From contig JACKOQ010000001.1 in assembly GCA_024234215.1 (NCBI GenBank), positions 479,674 through 543,673 of the forward strand: a stretch of DNA of 64,000 nucleotides, written 5' to 3'. This DNA is from Pseudomonadales bacterium (GTDB lineage: Bacteria; Pseudomonadota; Gammaproteobacteria; Pseudomonadales; UBA5862). How positions within the stretch are numbered: position 1 is the stretch's first letter; every line of letters begins with the position of its first letter. The notes under the pieces were generated by a model. The model made no database searches and was not told where the DNA came from. It saw only the letters and a list, made by a program, of their open reading frames with translations. The translations under genes were made by a program, and so were the position numbers. Below, piece by piece: positions 1 to 18,754 of the stretch.

Positions 1-674
1 CCATCGGTGCGAAACCGCACCCGGTAGTTCTTTTCGTAGGGTTCGAAGTGGATGTCCGAAGAGCCGAGCTTGATGGCGTCGAGCAGCAGCTTGTTGATGA
101 AGCGCACGATCGGCGCTTCGTCGACCTCGGAATTGTCGTTCTCTTCGCCGCGCTCGTCACCGGCGCTGATTTCGAGATCCTCGAGCGAGGCGTCGTCGAG
201 GTTGCCGAGCGAGGAGAGCTGGTCATCCTGGGCGTCGATGTAGGCATCGATGCTCTTGCCGAGTTTCTCCTCCTCGACCAGCACCGGCTGGGTGGTGATG
301 CCGGTGTGAAAGGTGATCTCGTCGAGCGCACGCAGGTTGGTCGGGTCCGACAGCGCGATGTAGAGCCGGTTGCCGCGGCGGTAGAGTGGCAGCACATGGT
401 GGCGGCGGACCAGCTTGACATCGATCAGCCGCTTCGGATGCATGGTGGCGTCGAAGGCGTCGAGATCGAGCAGCGGCGTGCCGAACTCCTCGGCGGCCGC
501 CATCGCGATGTCGAGGCTGCTGGCCAGCTTGCGCTTCACCAGGTGCGACACCAGCGACACATTCTCCTGACGCGACTTGCTGAGCGCCTCGACGGCCACC
601 TCTTCGCTCAACAGCCCATTCTCGACCAGACGGCGCGAGAAGCCGGTCAGTTTGATCGGGGAGAGTGATGCCAC
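1..674 (-). CDS. pilB: Type IV pilus assembly ATPase PilB, N-terminal ~224 codons (gene continues beyond window start)
   Basis: The minus-strand frame is open from a GTG at 674 (AGGAAG about 9 nt upstream) to the window edge. The translation [50 protein letters not shown]...[39 protein letters not shown] matches the PilB/GspE N-terminal domain and the start of the ATPase core. It is absent from the ORF track because it runs off the edge. Track ORF 48..668(+) is its antisense artefact. Confidence 0.85.
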   Translation of the reverse strand, partial: [224 protein letters not shown]

Positions 675-906
675 GCTGGAACTTCCTGTCGGCCGTAGGT
701 AGAGGGGAACGAAGAGTTTCCCGGTAATTCTAGTAGACGCTGCCATGATGGCAACCCAATGACCTCGGCTGCAAGGGTGACCAGAATTGTCACCTGTTGC
801 CGCAGCGGGCCATGCTGGCGGCGGTCGAGGGCGCCATGCCGGGCAGTCTGGCCGATAAAGTGTGACCTGGCACAAATAAAGATGAGCGCCAGGTCGATCT
901 AAAACA

Positions 907-922
907 TGGCATGGCAACTGCT
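907..922 (+). promoter_or_regulatory. Candidate sigma54 (-24/-12) promoter upstream of pilA
   Basis: TGGCATGGCAACTGCT has the correct GG-N10-GC spacing and resembles the consensus TGGCACG-N4-TTGCW. It lies about 145 nt upstream of the pilA ATG. pilA is RpoN/PilR-dependent in Pseudomonas. This is motif recognition only. Confidence 0.4.
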
Positions 923-1065
923 TTGGTCGGTTCGGCATGGTCGTCGGGCTTCAGCCGCGACCATGGCAGCGTCGTCATCCTTGCATCCCGGCAGGTTTGA
1001 CTATACTTGGAATGCGAAGCTGTCGGGCACTCCGGCATTGCAATCAACCTCAGGAGATTTTGAGC

Positions 1066-1494
1066 ATGAAAACGGTACAGAAGGGTTTCACCCTGATCGA
1101 ACTGATGATCGTCGTGGCGATCATCGGCATTCTGGCGGCAGTGGCGATTCCGGCCTATCAGGACTACACCATCCGCGCCAAGGCATCGGAACTGGTCGGC
1201 TTTGCCTCGCCAGCCAAGATGGCAGTGAGCGAATACATGGTGTCGCGCAACGCAACGACCTTCCCGGCCACTGCGGCGACCGTGGGTGTCAGCACCAACG
1301 TCACCTCGAAGTATGTCAGCAGCATCGGCTACGGTGCCGGTGGCGTCATCACCGTCAATGGCAAGGCGTCGGCACTGAACAACAAGAACATTGCCCTCAC
1401 GCTGACGCCGCGTATCGCCACCACCTCCGGCACGGTCAACTGGACCTGCGGTGCCACCGCCGGTACCAAGTACCTGCCAGCCTCTTGCCGATAA
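1066..1494 (+). CDS. pilA: Type IVa major pilin (142 aa)
   Basis: ATG at 1066 is preceded by AGGAGA. The class III signal peptide and N-methyl-Phe motif [34 protein letters not shown] is present. The C-terminal disulfide loop is [14 protein letters not shown] followed by R. The gene is divergent from pilB. Confidence 0.95.
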
Positions 1495-1517
1495 CCGCTT
1501 GACCCTCGGCGGGTGAC

Positions 1518-1552
1518 AGAGGCTGGCCATCCCGGTGGCCAGCCTCTTTTTG
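1518..1552 (+). terminator. Rho-independent terminator after pilA
   Basis: Stem AGAGGCTGGCC / GGCCAGCCTCT with a short loop, followed by TTTTTGTT, about 24 nt after the pilA stop. Confidence 0.75.
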
Positions 1553-1567
1553 TTGCCGTCCACTCCA

Positions 1568-16748: not shown

Positions 16749-16827
16749 GGTAGGCGTTTTCACTTGGAGCGGTATGTGGTGAATTTTGGCATTTGGTGTT
16801 CGGACAGGATGTGTCCAAAATGAACCG

Positions 16828-17847
16828 ATGAAAAAGAGTGTAGGCAATCTGGACCAGTACGCGCCAATCGTCGCGGCCGTACCAAGTGGCAGTGGGGCGG
16901 CAGTTGTTCATCGCATGATCGAAGACAACACTCCATCTTACAAGGTCAAGACCTACCCGCCGACCTGGGAATACTGCCCGTTCAAATTGCGCCAGCTGCG
17001 TGAACCGACGGCCGCCTTGGTCCACGCGCCGCCGGATCACGCCATATTTGTTTGCCCGCGCCGTACGCCACTGGTGATCACTTTTCACAACTATGTGCTC
17101 GACCCGGCGATGCGGGCGCATGGCTCGCTCGCGCAACGGCTACACTATGCGGGTGATTTGCGCCTGTTGACCCGTCTTGCCTTGCGTCAGGCCGTGGCAG
17201 TCACGGCCGTCAGTGATTTCACGGCACAGTTGGTGCGGGACGACATGCGCTTTGCCGGCACCATCGCGGTGATTCCAAACGGGGTGGACACACAGCGCTT
17301 CCACCCGGCAGAGGAAGCACGCGAGGGCGGTCCGCTGCGGGTGCTGTTCAGCGGCAACCTCACGCGTCGAAAGGGGGCGCAGCTGTTGCCGGAGATTGCC
17401 CGGCTGGCCGGACCCGATGTGGCCATCCACTACACCGCCGGCGCGCGTGCCGAGCTCACGGACCCGGGCTGGGCGGGACTGCATCCGGTCGGCCGCGTGC
17501 CGCATCACGACATGCCGACGTTGTATCGGCAGTTCGAGGTGCTGTTGCTGCCAACGGTCCGTGAGGGCATGAGTCTGGCACTGCTGGAGGCGATGGCGAG
17601 CGGTCTTGCGGTGGTGGCGAGCAATGCCTCTTCCAATCCAGAACTGATCGCCGAGGGCGTCGGTGGTCATCTCTGCCCGGTCGCAGAAGCGGAAGCCTAT
17701 GCCGCCGCCTTGCGCAGCTTGGCGTCGTCACGCGCCAAGGTCAGAGCGATGGGGCAGGAGAACCGGCGGCTCGTCGAACAGCAGCACAGTGTCGGCAGAA
17801 TGGTGGGAGCCTATCAGGCGCTTTTTGCAGAAGTCCTGGCCATCTGA
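16828..17847 (+). CDS. GT4 (GT-B) glycosyltransferase
   Basis: RRKGAQLL...LLLPTVREGMSLALLEAMASGLAVVASN is the Glycos_transf_1 core. Start chosen at MKKSV (16828). Confidence 0.8.
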   Translation: MKKSVGNLDQYAPIVAAVPSGSGAAVVHRMIEDNTPSYKVKTYPPTWEYCPFKLRQLREPTAALVHAPPDHAIFVCPRRTPLVITFHNYVLDPAMRAHGSLAQRLHYAGDLRLLTRLALRQAVAVTAVSDFTAQLVRDDMRFAGTIAVIPNGVDTQRFHPAEEAREGGPLRVLFSGNLTRRKGAQLLPEIARLAGPDVAIHYTAGARAELTDPGWAGLHPVGRVPHHDMPTLYRQFEVLLLPTVREGMSLALLEAMASGLAVVASNASSNPELIAEGVGGHLCPVAEAEAYAAALRSLASSRAKVRAMGQENRRLVEQQHSVGRMVGAYQALFAEVLAI

Positions 17848-17894
17848 TCCTTTGGCAGTTCCGTGCCGGGGTGATCAGATCAGAGAGAAGAAAC

Positions 17895-18590
17895 ATGACG
17901 AGCATTTATGAAAGCGGTGTCTATCTTGAAAACAATCCGCAGTGGCATGAGCAGGATGCACCCTGGAAGGTCACTCAGATCAAGAAGATGCTTGCTCGCA
18001 ATGGGCTCAGTCCAATGCGGGTATGTGACGTTGGCTGCGGCTCCGGGGAGATCCTCAGGCTGCTTGCCGAAGAGAGCACGGCCTCTGCGACGTTCGTTGG
18101 CTACGACATTTCACCTTTTGCTCATGAAATAGCCAAACGCAAGGCGCGTGACAACCTCGGGTTTCGTCTGGAGCCGCTGCCAGGCGCGTCGGAGCAGCCC
18201 TATGATCTTCTTCTTTGCGTCGATGTGTTCGAGCATGTCGAGGATTGCTTCGCCTTTCTGCGCGAAATAAAGAGCAAGGCGGTCTACAAGCTGTTCCACA
18301 TCCCGCTCGATCTGTCGGTGCAGACGGTATTGAGGGCGACCCCACTGTTGCAGCGTCGCGCCTCGATTGGACACATTCATTACTTTACGAAAGATACAGC
18401 GCTGGCCACGTTGCGGGATGCGGGGTATGAGATCACCGACCACTTCTACACCCACAAATTCTGCGACACGCCGCAATCTGGTCTGGTCGACAACGTCACG
18501 AAGTGGGTGCTCAGTTCCCTTTTTGTCCTGAATGAAGAGCTTGCCGTTCGGATCCTTGGCTGCTCTTCATTGATGGTGCTGGCCAAGTGA
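17895..18590 (+). CDS. Class I SAM-dependent methyltransferase
   Basis: VCDVGCGSGEILRLL...YDLLLCVDVFEHVED. Start chosen at MTSIYE (17895). Confidence 0.7.
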   Translation: MTSIYESGVYLENNPQWHEQDAPWKVTQIKKMLARNGLSPMRVCDVGCGSGEILRLLAEESTASATFVGYDISPFAHEIAKRKARDNLGFRLEPLPGASEQPYDLLLCVDVFEHVEDCFAFLREIKSKAVYKLFHIPLDLSVQTVLRATPLLQRRASIGHIHYFTKDTALATLRDAGYEITDHFYTHKFCDTPQSGLVDNVTKWVLSSLFVLNEELAVRILGCSSLMVLAK

Positions 18591-18640
18591 GATTCTGAAC
18601 CCTCCAAGGCGGAAGGTCACGGTCCACCCACGCCAAGGCA

Positions 18641-18668
18641 TTGTCTATTGGTCGCGGGTTGCTAGAAT
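18641..18668 (+). promoter_or_regulatory. Candidate sigma70 promoter for tRNA-Thr
   Basis: TTGTCT, a 16-nt spacer, then TAGAAT. A GC-rich discriminator (CCGCTCCCC) follows, and the tRNA 5' end is 10 nt after the -10 element. Confidence 0.5.
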
Positions 18669-18678
18669 ACCGCTCCCC

Positions 18679-18754
18679 GCCGGTGTAGCTCAGTTGGTAG
18701 AGCAGCGCATTCGTAATGCGAAGGTCGTAGGTTCGACTCCTATCTCCGGCACCA
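18679..18754 (+). tRNA. thrW: tRNA-Thr (anticodon CGU), 76 nt with encoded CCA
   Basis: GCCGGTGTAGCTCAGTTGGTAGAGCAGCGCATTCGTAATGCGAAGGTCGTAGGTTCGACTCCTATCTCCGGCACCA. Anticodon loop is TTCGTAA. The sequence is nearly identical to E. coli tRNA-Thr(CGU) except in the acceptor stem. Confidence 0.95.

Follow-up and report, generated by a model that had tools for sequence, protein, structure and literature searches.

A strain-variable gene island between pilA and tRNA-Thr of a Pseudomonadales bacterium as a probable pilin O-glycosylation locus

We analysed a stretch of 64,000 nucleotides from an uncultured Pseudomonadales bacterium (contig JACKOQ010000001.1, positions 479,674 to 543,673 of the forward strand), here called the window, with positions counted from its first letter. 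Between pilA, the gene of a type IV pilin, and a tRNA-Thr gene, the window holds an island of 18 open reading frames (ORFs) spanning 1568-18590, of which 16 are glycan-related and two are of the VapBC type. Judging from the comparisons described below, we propose that this interval is a pilin O-glycosylation locus, in which a conserved module next to the pilin gene is combined with a cassette that would supply the strain-specific part of the same glycan; we give this reading a probability of about 0.62. The link of the proximal module to the pilin is strong, and the variable cassette is likely to contribute to the same glycan on the pilin. The central elements are the following.

1066..1494, plus strand: pilA, major type IVa pilin of 142 aa, with Pilin and N_methyl domains
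1568..3490, plus strand: candidate GT-C-type membrane glycosyltransferase of 640 aa with a C-terminal TPR domain, TfpW-like architecture and a DD motif
3572..4441, plus strand: GT2, a probable polyprenyl-phosphate glycosyltransferase with C-terminal membrane helices (Glycos_transf_2)
6737..18639, no strand: strain-variable replacement cassette of 11.9 kb, delimited by blastn of the window against the sister-strain locus L001

Results and discussion

A glycosyltransferase gene pair follows pilin genes in many Gammaproteobacteria

In the window, the genes of the GT-C protein and of GT2 are adjacent and stand directly behind pilA. A scan of one genome per bacterial species recovered at least 594 stretches that encode relatives of the GT-C protein, and the neighbourhood counts reported here refer to the best 80 of these at least 594 relatives, each taken with 10-kb flanks. 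The 80 loci, to which the L numbers below refer, belong to many Gammaproteobacteria and to one Burkholderiales metagenome-assembled genome (MAG). The carriers include SAR86, Pseudohongiellaceae, Berkiella, Lysobacter, Luteimonas, Marilutibacter, Lamprocystis, Plasticicumulans, Salinisphaera and Thiomargarita, among others. A pilin gene was found immediately upstream of the GT-C gene in 64 of the 73 loci that could be assessed. Close homologues of GT2 (E values of 1e-83 to 1e-126) were encoded directly downstream of the GT-C gene in 41 of 69 loci, and anywhere in the locus in 48 of 69. This linkage spans several gene orders: divergent pilB-pilA, pilA-GT-C-GT2-X-pilBCD (Berkiella), co-directional pilA-...-pilBCD, and tandem pilin genes. 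The first-pass annotation, made from the letters of the stretch alone, had tied the island to the pilin and taken it for an expansion by this organism. Comparison of the interval in related genomes supports the tie, with the GT-C and GT2 pair following pilin genes across many Gammaproteobacteria, and shows that the core pair is a widespread cassette, not a peculiarity of this organism. Cultured carriers of the core cassette are Lysobacter enzymogenes, Plasticicumulans lactativorans and Marilutibacter maris, while Luteimonas salinilitoris and Lamprocystis purpurea have pilA-GT-C without GT2 in the stretch examined.

The GT-C family is large. A profile built from 19 members picked out, at E <= 1e-30, 13,863 of 1.84 billion cluster representatives, a count possibly inflated by TPR-rich proteins; all 150 of the 150 representatives listed were near-full-length matches with E < 1e-142. 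A tblastn search of the GT-C protein against a plasmid collection gave no match. In an alignment of 52 GT-C-linked pilins, the alpha-beta loop has a conserved Pro followed by a Ser/Thr-rich stretch, and the alpha-beta loop of the pilin of the window is likewise Ser/Thr-rich.

The related loci vary in copy number. Tandem GT-C/TPR paralogues were seen after the pilin gene in 10 of the 80 loci (L019, L034, L042, L058, L059, L062, L065, L070, L074 and L081); they might differ in the sugar that they add or in the pilin that they serve. Several related loci hold two to four tandem pilin genes. Five loci from bins labelled "uncultured Enterobacteriaceae" or "Klebsiella pneumoniae" MAG (L006, L010, L012, L032 and L053) closely resemble those of SAR86 and Pseudohongiellaceae, and the taxonomic labels of these bins are doubtful.

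The GT-C protein has the architecture of a pilin glycosyltransferase

The GT-C ORF starts at 1568, after the end of pilA at 1494 and a hairpin at 1518-1547. Its product has no match in Pfam or NCBIfam, and none of the PMT, TMTC and STT3 families of Pfam matches it; the names given to its relatives at JGI are generic ("TPR repeat protein", "protein O-mannosyl-transferase"). A pair of aspartates (D53/D54 in the 651-aa numbering, within LLDDE) lies directly after the first membrane helix and is invariant in 19 family members. According to the family alignment, Y296-x6-P303 is also invariant, and HPLQVSTVLYPVQRM and FEHRNYLA are further conserved blocks. TPR profiles match at GT-C profile positions ~416-635, that is, in the C-terminal third, and a PDB profile search with the family matched the TPR part only. 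An AF2 model based on the family alignment (pLDDT 88, pTM 0.86) has polytopic membrane helices up to about residue 425 and helical repeats beyond; the TPR domain would be periplasmic. The earlier assignment of this protein as a GT-C transferase thus draws on its architecture, its DD motif and a weak fold match, and is not backed by any Pfam or NCBIfam family. The likeness of its architecture to that of the pilin glycosyltransferase TfpW, made through the published description of TfpW, holds. We propose that the product of 1568-3490 acts as a pilin O-glycosyltransferase of TfpW-like architecture.

The rest of the conserved module

ArnC, GtrB and DPMS each put a sugar on polyprenyl phosphate, and the nearest solved structures to GT2 (3572-4441) are ArnC (2.3e-22), GtrB sll0501 and DPMS. 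Its best NCBIfam models (AglJ, ArnC and a Dol-P-hexose transferase) all score under their cut-offs, and its hydrophobic segments lie at residues 211-274. By this kinship GT2 would make a lipid-monophosphate sugar. The "lipid-carrier transferase" noticed in the first pass is a glycosyltransferase of the ArnC/GtrB type acting on polyprenyl monophosphate, and not a phosphoglycosyl transferase. Two more genes complete the module up to the Wzx-like gene.

4434..5660, plus strand: GT4 glycosyltransferase GT4a (domain and family matches)
5644..6372, plus strand: class I S-adenosylmethionine (SAM) methyltransferase MTa (domain match)

Close homologues of GT4a (E < 1e-70) adjoin the GT-C gene in eight other loci.

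The distal part of the island is exchanged between sister strains

A sister strain (L001/L002) is colinear with window positions 1-6737, from pilB into wzx, with 89.5% DNA identity (blastn). Beyond 6737, inside wzx, similarity to L001 ceases and resumes only at 18639-18707, a segment 100% identical to the end of L001; the 40 nt before tRNA-Thr and the 5' part of the tRNA gene are thus fully conserved. Between the same flanks the sister strain carries a different cassette of 5.0 kb, which encodes another Wzx, a methyltransferase, a GT4 enzyme and two GT2-like enzymes. No CDP-sugar, aminotransferase or formyltransferase genes were found in the recovered stretch of that cassette. The island had been described as a single unit; it actually consists of a conserved module (1568-6737) and a replaceable cassette (6737-18639). 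As the swap is bounded by homologous flanks, it fits allelic replacement by homologous recombination.

The identities of the shared proteins with those of the sister strain fall into two groups. GT2 (97.6%), the GT-C protein (92.2%), GT4a (90.0%) and MTa (89.7%) are conserved, whereas the pilin (75.4%) and Wzx (36.2%) are divergent. In the pilin (window 1066-1494 compared to L001 8539-8967) the changes cluster after the conserved N-terminal helix, a pattern that agrees with diversifying selection on the exposed surface of the pilin. With the pilin and Wzx divergent and the transfer machinery conserved, the exposed pilin and the distal cassette vary together, and this is the pattern expected if the pilin surface and the glycan diversify together.

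Glycan genes like those of the cassette recur beside pilin genes

Three MAG loci, L023 (Pseudomonadales), L047 (Chromatiales) and L065 (Lysobacterales), have a CDP-sugar set made up of rfbF, rfbG, RmlC, a C-methyltransferase and CmcI, with or without DegT, next to pilA-GT-C, and L019 holds part of it. Weak homologues of the glycosyltransferase GT2b of the window accompany the set in L023, L047, L062 and L065. The first pass would have taken the presence of the island at loci away from pilA as speaking against the pilin link. The CDP-sugar set recurs adjoining pilA-GT-C in three to four unrelated lineages, and not at unrelated loci.

Other lineages have comparable genes nested between pilA-GT-C-GT2 and pilB. 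In L082, from a Thiogranum sp. MAG, this interval (L082 positions 8057-14492) encodes two methyltransferases, a GT11 enzyme, two further GT2 enzymes and a Wzm/Wzt-like pair of ABC-2 permease and ABC ATPase; it has the look of a glycan pathway that depends on an ABC transporter and lies within a pilus gene cluster. L024 has a DegT enzyme, a PF03706 protein, two GT4 enzymes and two methyltransferases in the same place, and L078 (Lysobacter enzymogenes) has a PF03706 protein and a UDP-GlcNAc 2-epimerase. Taken together, the nesting of comparable genes in pil clusters, the recurrence of the CDP-sugar set and the cassette swap indicate that the extra genes probably belong to the pilin system.

The commonest third partner of GT-C and GT2 is a protein of about 300-330 aa from PF03706 (LPG_synthase_TM; the MprF flippase-domain family), with 26 proteins found. 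As candidate flippases they would act on polyprenyl-phosphate sugars; no PF03706 protein is encoded in the window itself. Of the neighbours in the related loci, SAM methyltransferases are the most common, and GT4 enzymes and DegT aminotransferases are also frequent. Phosphoglycosyl transferases, Wzy, Wzz and WaaL/PglL-type enzymes are not among the frequent neighbour families of these loci. In the SAR86/Pseudohongiellaceae group (L005, L008, L014, L016 and others), membrane acyltransferases with AT3 and SGNH domains (OafA-like) recur about 3.6 kb downstream of the GT-C gene, with GFO/IDH/MocA oxidoreductase and DegT genes alongside. The combination of AT3-SGNH and DegT neighbours hints at O-acetylated amino-sugar glycans.

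Layout and boundaries of the slot

The following elements frame the island.

1..674, minus strand: N-terminal part of pilB, type IV pilus assembly ATPase, with MshEN and T2SSE domains, running off the left end of the window
907..922, plus strand: sigma-54-type -24/-12 promoter-like site TGGCATGGCAACTGCT, 144 nt upstream of pilA
1518..1556, plus strand: intrinsic terminator after pilA, with a 13-bp stem, 8 G-C pairs and a T-run
18679..18754, plus strand: tRNA-Thr with anticodon CGT (ARAGORN), right-hand boundary of the slot

On identical contigs the start of pilB is called at window position 674. Many metagenome contigs, some as long as 892 kb, bear the same locus, and a protein identical to the pilA product is named pilin in Pseudomonadales MAGs. 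The hairpin behind pilA (1518-1547) is followed by TTTTTGTTG and is the top terminator-like site in the region. Terminator-like and promoter-like sites are no more numerous in the island than in shuffled sequence, and since the terminator-like total does not exceed that of the shuffles, only the site behind pilA is notable. The sole match to the sigma-54 consensus TGGCAYGNNNNYTGCW in the 64 kb is the one at 907-922. Shuffled sequences held a mean of 0.31 matches, with at least one in 28 of 100, and a single match is not significant by itself; the site probably functions as the sigma-54 promoter of pilA. PilS/PilR-like genes were noticed upstream of pilA in several related loci.

The first-pass annotation had described a divergent pilB (minus) and pilA (plus), a strong terminator after pilA, a tRNA-Thr gene at 18679 with a housekeeping gene 12 nt beyond, and, as a whole, the pilB/pilA/accessory/tRNA-Thr order of Pseudomonas aeruginosa. 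All of these were found in place. The tRNA-Thr(CGT) gene is the only tRNA gene that ARAGORN finds in the window. Across the 12-nt gap lies an acetate-CoA ligase/GNAT gene on the minus strand, which ends at 18767. It encodes 906 aa resembling a Pat-like protein acetyltransferase and is divergent from a histone-deacetylase-family gene, the two occupying 18767-22513; their products may act as a pair in adding and removing lysine acetyl groups. It is the Pat-like gene, and not nadC, that comes next after tRNA-Thr in this organism. The nadC gene follows in seven related loci, and the same gene follows the slot in P. aeruginosa. The remainder of the window, from 21.5 to 64 kb, consists of housekeeping genes (ORFs supported by GC content at third codon positions, GC3), and no second glycan cluster was found within it. 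No tRNA gene lies within 10 kb downstream of the GT-C gene in 43 related loci, so the tRNA-Thr boundary is specific to this lineage and to arrangements like that of P. aeruginosa.

Gene content of the variable cassette

The cassette opens inside the Wzx-like gene and holds the following genes.

6529..7815, plus strand: candidate Wzx-like flippase of the MOP family, 428 aa, about 12 hydrophobic segments (Polysacc_synt 34.5 bits, cut-off 28.2)
7812..8579, plus strand: glucose-1-phosphate cytidylyltransferase, rfbF/ddhA type (TIGR02623, 452 bits, cut-off 300)
8564..9652, plus strand: CDP-glucose 4,6-dehydratase, rfbG/ddhB type (TIGR02622, 516 bits, cut-off 278)
9826..10050, plus strand: candidate VapB-like antitoxin, 74 aa (weak DUF2281 match), overlapping the start of vapC
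10031..10477, plus strand: VapC PIN-domain toxin (PIN domain; TIGR00028 45.9 bits, below the cut-off of 73.6)
10498..11133, plus strand: RmlC-like NDP-4-keto-6-deoxyhexose 3,5-epimerase (dTDP_sugar_isom 1.8e-59; TIGR01221 157 bits, cut-off 156)
11130..12353, plus strand: NDP-hexose 3-C-methyltransferase (Methyltransf_13 and Methyltransf_14)
12350..13474, plus strand: DegT-family sugar 4-aminotransferase (DegT_DnrJ_EryC1, 4.5e-121)
13465..14154, plus strand: PurN-like formyltransferase (Formyl_trans_N; PDB matches)
14151..14873, plus strand: WbqC-family protein (PF08889, 3.7e-66)
14851..15627, plus strand: methyltransferase of the CmcI/rhamnosyl O-methyltransferase family (PF04989, 8.9e-100)
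15690..16748, minus strand: soluble GT2 glycosyltransferase GT2b (Glycos_transf_2), no hydrophobic segment
16828..17847, plus strand: GT4 glycosyltransferase GT4b (family matches)
17895..18590, plus strand: class I SAM methyltransferase MTb (domain match)

The Wzx-like gene is the first of the cassette, and its Polysacc_synt match is weak. The start of the RmlC-like gene at 10498 is taken from gene calls, with an alternative at 10585. GT2b probably starts with the ATG at 16748 of an ORF that reaches 16847, and GT4b probably with the ATG at 16828 of an ORF that opens at 16786; the ORF of MTb opens at 17871. The structures nearest to the 3-C-methyltransferase are KijD1 (5t64, 9e-82), TylC3 and TcaB9, and those nearest to the DegT aminotransferase are perosamine synthetases. 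The PurN-like enzyme is a probable sugar N-formyltransferase, with its sugar substrate suggested by the gene context. As had been counted in the first pass, the island has 18 genes and four methyltransferases, the latter being the 3-C-methyltransferase, the CmcI-like enzyme, MTa and MTb. The description of 17.1 kb packed with glycosylation genes applies to 16 of the 18 ORFs and fails for the toxin-antitoxin pair. The term "self-contained pathway" goes further than the gene content allows: the cytoplasmic glycosyltransferases may build the glycan that reaches the pilin, and the 18 ORFs include no initiating phosphoglycosyl transferase of the Bac_transf or WecA type, and no Wzy, Wzz or WaaL/PglL-type ligase.

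The VapB-like/VapC pair (9826-10477) is set into the sugar-nucleotide operon, with the CDP-glucose dehydratase gene before it and that of the RmlC-like epimerase after it. It is present on every contig of this strain type that covers 9826-10477, and the 74-aa VapB-like gene is also called on identical contigs. The pair could stabilise the cassette, or mark its acquisition. A low-GC block at 13.0-16.8 kb covers the formyltransferase, WbqC, CmcI-type methyltransferase and GT2b genes, which suggests a more recent foreign origin for this part of the cassette.

Proposed pathway

The sequences show the gene content and order, the family assignments, the conserved pilA-GT-C-GT2 linkage and the cassette swap; from these we infer the enzymatic steps, the acceptor, the identity of the sugars and the placing of the cassette product on the pilin, as follows. 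The sigma-54-type promoter would drive pilA, and the hairpin behind it would pass only a fraction of the transcripts on to the enzyme genes; partial read-through of the post-pilin hairpin has been proposed for the pilin-accessory cassettes of P. aeruginosa (PMC11841053). At the cytoplasmic face, the GtrB/ArnC-like GT2 would load a sugar on undecaprenyl phosphate. Six enzymes (cytidylyltransferase, 4,6-dehydratase, 3,5-epimerase, 3-C-methyltransferase, 4-aminotransferase and formyltransferase) would produce a CDP-4-formamido-4,6-dideoxy-3-C-methyl-hexose, possibly O-methylated; the WbqC-family protein and the CmcI-type methyltransferase accompany the six. Still in the cytoplasm, the soluble GT4 and GT2 enzymes and the methyltransferases would extend and decorate the lipid-linked glycan, which the Wzx-like protein would then flip to the periplasm. 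There the TfpW-like GT-C protein would transfer it to Ser/Thr of the pilin. The periplasmic TPR domain probably holds or recognises the pilin, and the acceptor sites probably lie in the exposed alpha-beta loop.

It is tempting to speculate further. Many Gammaproteobacteria may share a modular pilin O-glycosylation in which a glycan started by an ArnC/GtrB-like GT2 on undecaprenyl monophosphate is extended and decorated in the cytoplasm by soluble glycosyltransferases and methyltransferases, in the manner of Agl, and exported by interchangeable systems (PF03706, Wzx or Wzm-Wzt). The TPR-bearing GT-C protein would serve as a pilin-dedicated O-oligosaccharyltransferase, and pilus glycotypes, swapped by cassette, would co-diversify with the pilin under pressure from phages or grazers. 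One such glycotype would carry a CDP-derived 3-C-methyl-4-formamido sugar. As a whole this picture is tentative, and rather unlikely to hold in all its parts.

Alternative explanations

Several observations weigh against the pilin O-glycosylation locus that we propose. In a Foldseek search with the membrane part of the GT-C protein, the best matches were STT3, PglB and ArnT, and they were weak (E values of 1.6e-3 to 1.4e-2, TM-scores of 0.3-0.38). The TfpW motif YX6PFX7P is only half kept, with R replacing F and no second P at the right distance. No named relative from Pseudomonas or Teredinibacter appeared among the 120 matches listed in two protein searches, which started from the window protein and from a Cellvibrionaceae member. 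None of the 52 multi-pass neighbours in the related loci matches Polysacc_synt, so a Wzx-type protein is atypical for such loci. The GT2 enzymes of the two sister strains are 97.6% identical despite their different cassettes, and the sugar loaded by GT2 would therefore not be cassette-specific. The GC content is 0.47-0.56 at 13.0-16.8 kb compared to ~0.66 in the flanks; given this low-GC mosaic, the toxin-antitoxin pair and the atypical Wzx, the cassette could be a captured O-antigen-like cluster that serves another acceptor. Finally, extension of a polyprenyl-monophosphate sugar by Leloir enzymes is, to our knowledge, established in archaea (Agl) and not in bacteria, and this is the weak link of the mechanism.

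Some of these points lead to the main rival reading, a composite locus, in which the proximal module (GT-C, GT2 and perhaps GT4a and MTa) puts a simple sugar on the pilin, and the stretch from wzx to MTb, as an O-antigen-like or general-glycosylation cluster, serves lipopolysaccharide (LPS), capsule or other proteins, being merely lodged in a recombination-prone slot at the tRNA side. The similarity break inside wzx does part the conserved enzymes from a unit of Wzx, glycosyltransferases and sugar synthesis, and Wzx-type flippases normally take diphosphate-linked units begun by a phosphoglycosyl transferase, which would here be encoded elsewhere. The rarity of Wzx in related pilin loci, the low-GC mosaic with its VapBC pair and the near-identity of GT2 in strains with different cassettes agree with such a division of labour. 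However, the same CDP-sugar set stands beside pilA-GT-C in three to four unrelated lineages, several lineages hold comparable glycan genes, including an ABC exporter, between pilA and pilB, the cassette has no Wzy, Wzz or ligase, and the pilin co-diversifies with it. We regard a locus of such mixed purpose as possible and, on this evidence, doubtful. Far less probable is an ordinary LPS or capsule locus that fills the whole interval, with a membrane/TPR protein that acts on polysaccharide or other proteins, the adjacency of pilA being without meaning. That the GT-C protein is recognised by no family model, that its relatives bear generic JGI names and that 9 of 73 related loci have no adjacent pilin gene would fit this view, but a pilin gene adjoins the GT-C gene in 64 of 73 loci of widely differing gene order, and this, together with the match to TfpW in architecture and in place after the pilin terminator, argues strongly against it.

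The tRNA gene at the border, the partly atypical GC content and the toxin-antitoxin pair might also suggest a mobile genomic island, inserted at tRNA-Thr by a site-specific integrase. But there is no integrase or transposase among the 18 ORFs, the island lies 5' of the tRNA gene, only short chance repeats were found in place of a tRNA-end or flanking direct repeat, and the sister strain has its swap between homologous flanks. With neither an integrase nor att-like repeats, a tRNA-targeted integrative island was rejected as very improbable.

Novelty and significance

In the literature searched, whose coverage is incomplete and which is thus weak evidence of novelty, we found no description of a cassette of pilA, a TPR-bearing GT-C and a GtrB/ArnC-type GT2, with or without PF03706. 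Nor did that literature contain a pilin locus of this size and content, in agreement with the first-pass annotation, or anything relevant on glycosylated pilins in Lysobacter or Xanthomonas. The enzyme types encoded beside pilA in these sources are TfpO/PglL-like ligases and the arabinose-specific TfpW only. The locus described here thus points to a third and apparently much commoner arrangement, a TPR-bearing GT-C protein with a GtrB/ArnC-like lipid-sugar synthase, which can grow into a 17-kb strain-variable glycan island. Pilin glycosylation is known to shield P. aeruginosa from pilus-specific phages (bioRxiv 10.1101/150227). If confirmed, the pathway proposed here would widen the known range of bacterial protein O-glycosylation, provide a genetic marker for glycosylated pili in uncultured bacteria and a new pilin-directed glycosyltransferase for glycoengineering, and offer a natural system for the study of pilus-glycan co-diversification. 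With the core cassette widespread and present in cultured species, the proposal is open to testing now.

Comparison with known systems

The general logic of the proposed pathway can be recognised in other domains of life. In archaeal N-glycosylation by the Agl pathway, a GT2 enzyme (AglJ) puts the first sugar on a monophosphate, the glycan is extended and methylated in the cytoplasm (AglP), flipped by a MOP-family protein (AglR) and transferred by a GT-C enzyme (AglB). In the O-mannosylation of eukaryotes (TMTC/PMT), the TMTC enzymes join a GT-C domain to TPR repeats and take Dol-P-Man from a DPMS-type GT2. AglJ is the best NCBIfam model for GT2 of the window, below its cut-off. Agl and the TMTC/PMT enzymes differ from the present locus in their acceptors and linkages.

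Among bacterial loci, the island is no standard Wzx/Wzy-dependent O-antigen cluster, of whose characteristic genes it holds a Wzx-like one only. Wzy, Wzz, Bac_transf and WecA are absent from the 18 ORFs and may lie elsewhere in the genome. TfpO/PilO and PglL resemble the system proposed here in that they are pilin-linked accessory genes in the same slot and move a Wzx-flipped, lipid-linked glycan made by cytoplasmic enzymes. They differ in using diphosphate-linked O-units. No protein of the island has a Wzy_C (O-antigen ligase) domain, and this is therefore not a TfpO/PglL system; moreover, the pilin of the window ends in ...PASCR and not in the C-terminal Ser used by TfpO.

The Arn pathway (ArnB, ArnA, ArnC, ArnE/F and ArnT), which makes the aminoarabinose of lipid A, also combines a DegT aminotransferase and a formyltransferase with a GT2 and a GT-C enzyme, and ArnC, which puts a 4-formamido sugar on undecaprenyl phosphate, is the nearest solved relative of our GT2. 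Unlike in the Arn pathway, the sugar of the window would be CDP-activated, 6-deoxy and C-methylated, the acceptor would differ, and no ArnD deformylase or ArnE/F was found here. GT2 is, in addition, kept in the sister strain, in whose recovered cassette neither an aminotransferase nor a formyltransferase gene was found.

Three-component systems have been described for phage GtrABC, for the pentofuranose systems of Kelly et al. 2024 (PMC11127046) and for streptococcal protein O-glycosylation by GtrB and a GT-C enzyme (PMC11092751). As we propose here, a GT2 enzyme makes an undecaprenyl-phosphate sugar, a flippase moves it and a GT-C enzyme transfers it outside the cytoplasm; the systems of Kelly et al. 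also use a MOP/MATE-type flippase. The putative acceptor in our case is a type IV pilin, and not an O-antigen or a teichoic acid, the GT-C protein has a TPR domain, there is no GtrA-type protein, and the related loci usually add a PF03706 protein.

TfpW (AAM52060.1), the arabinosyltransferase of group IV pilins in P. aeruginosa Pa5196 and P. paraeruginosa PA7, was likened to the GT-C protein by its description only. It is a protein of 646 aa with 11 predicted membrane helices and a periplasmic TPR domain, modelled on ArnT; it has an essential DDX motif in loop 1, its gene directly follows pilA, its main sites in the Pa5196 pilin lie in the alpha-beta loop region, homologues of tfpW occur beside pilA in a handful of species, and a homologue of Teredinibacter is named (bioRxiv 10.1101/2020.04.19.049825). 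The literature searched describes TfpW only with D-arabinofuranose (D-Araf) donors. D-Araf genes (DPPR synthase, DprE1 and DprE2) are absent from the 64-kb window and from the frequent neighbours of the related loci, the GT-C protein is here partnered by an ArnC/GtrB-like GT2, TfpX is missing, and the proline motif is only partly kept (Y-x6-P). In addition the locus has further genes, up to 16 of them, for soluble glycosyltransferases, four methyltransferases, the Wzx-like protein and the CDP-sugar pathway, among others. Against these differences stand the likenesses that led us to the comparison: in both cases a gene directly after pilA and its terminator, in the pilB/pilA/accessory/tRNA-Thr slot, encodes a protein of about 640 aa that joins a polytopic membrane part to a TPR domain, has a DD motif after the first membrane helix, counts ArnT among its nearest structural relatives, in our case by a weak match, and uses, or in our case would use, lipid-monophosphate sugars as donors.

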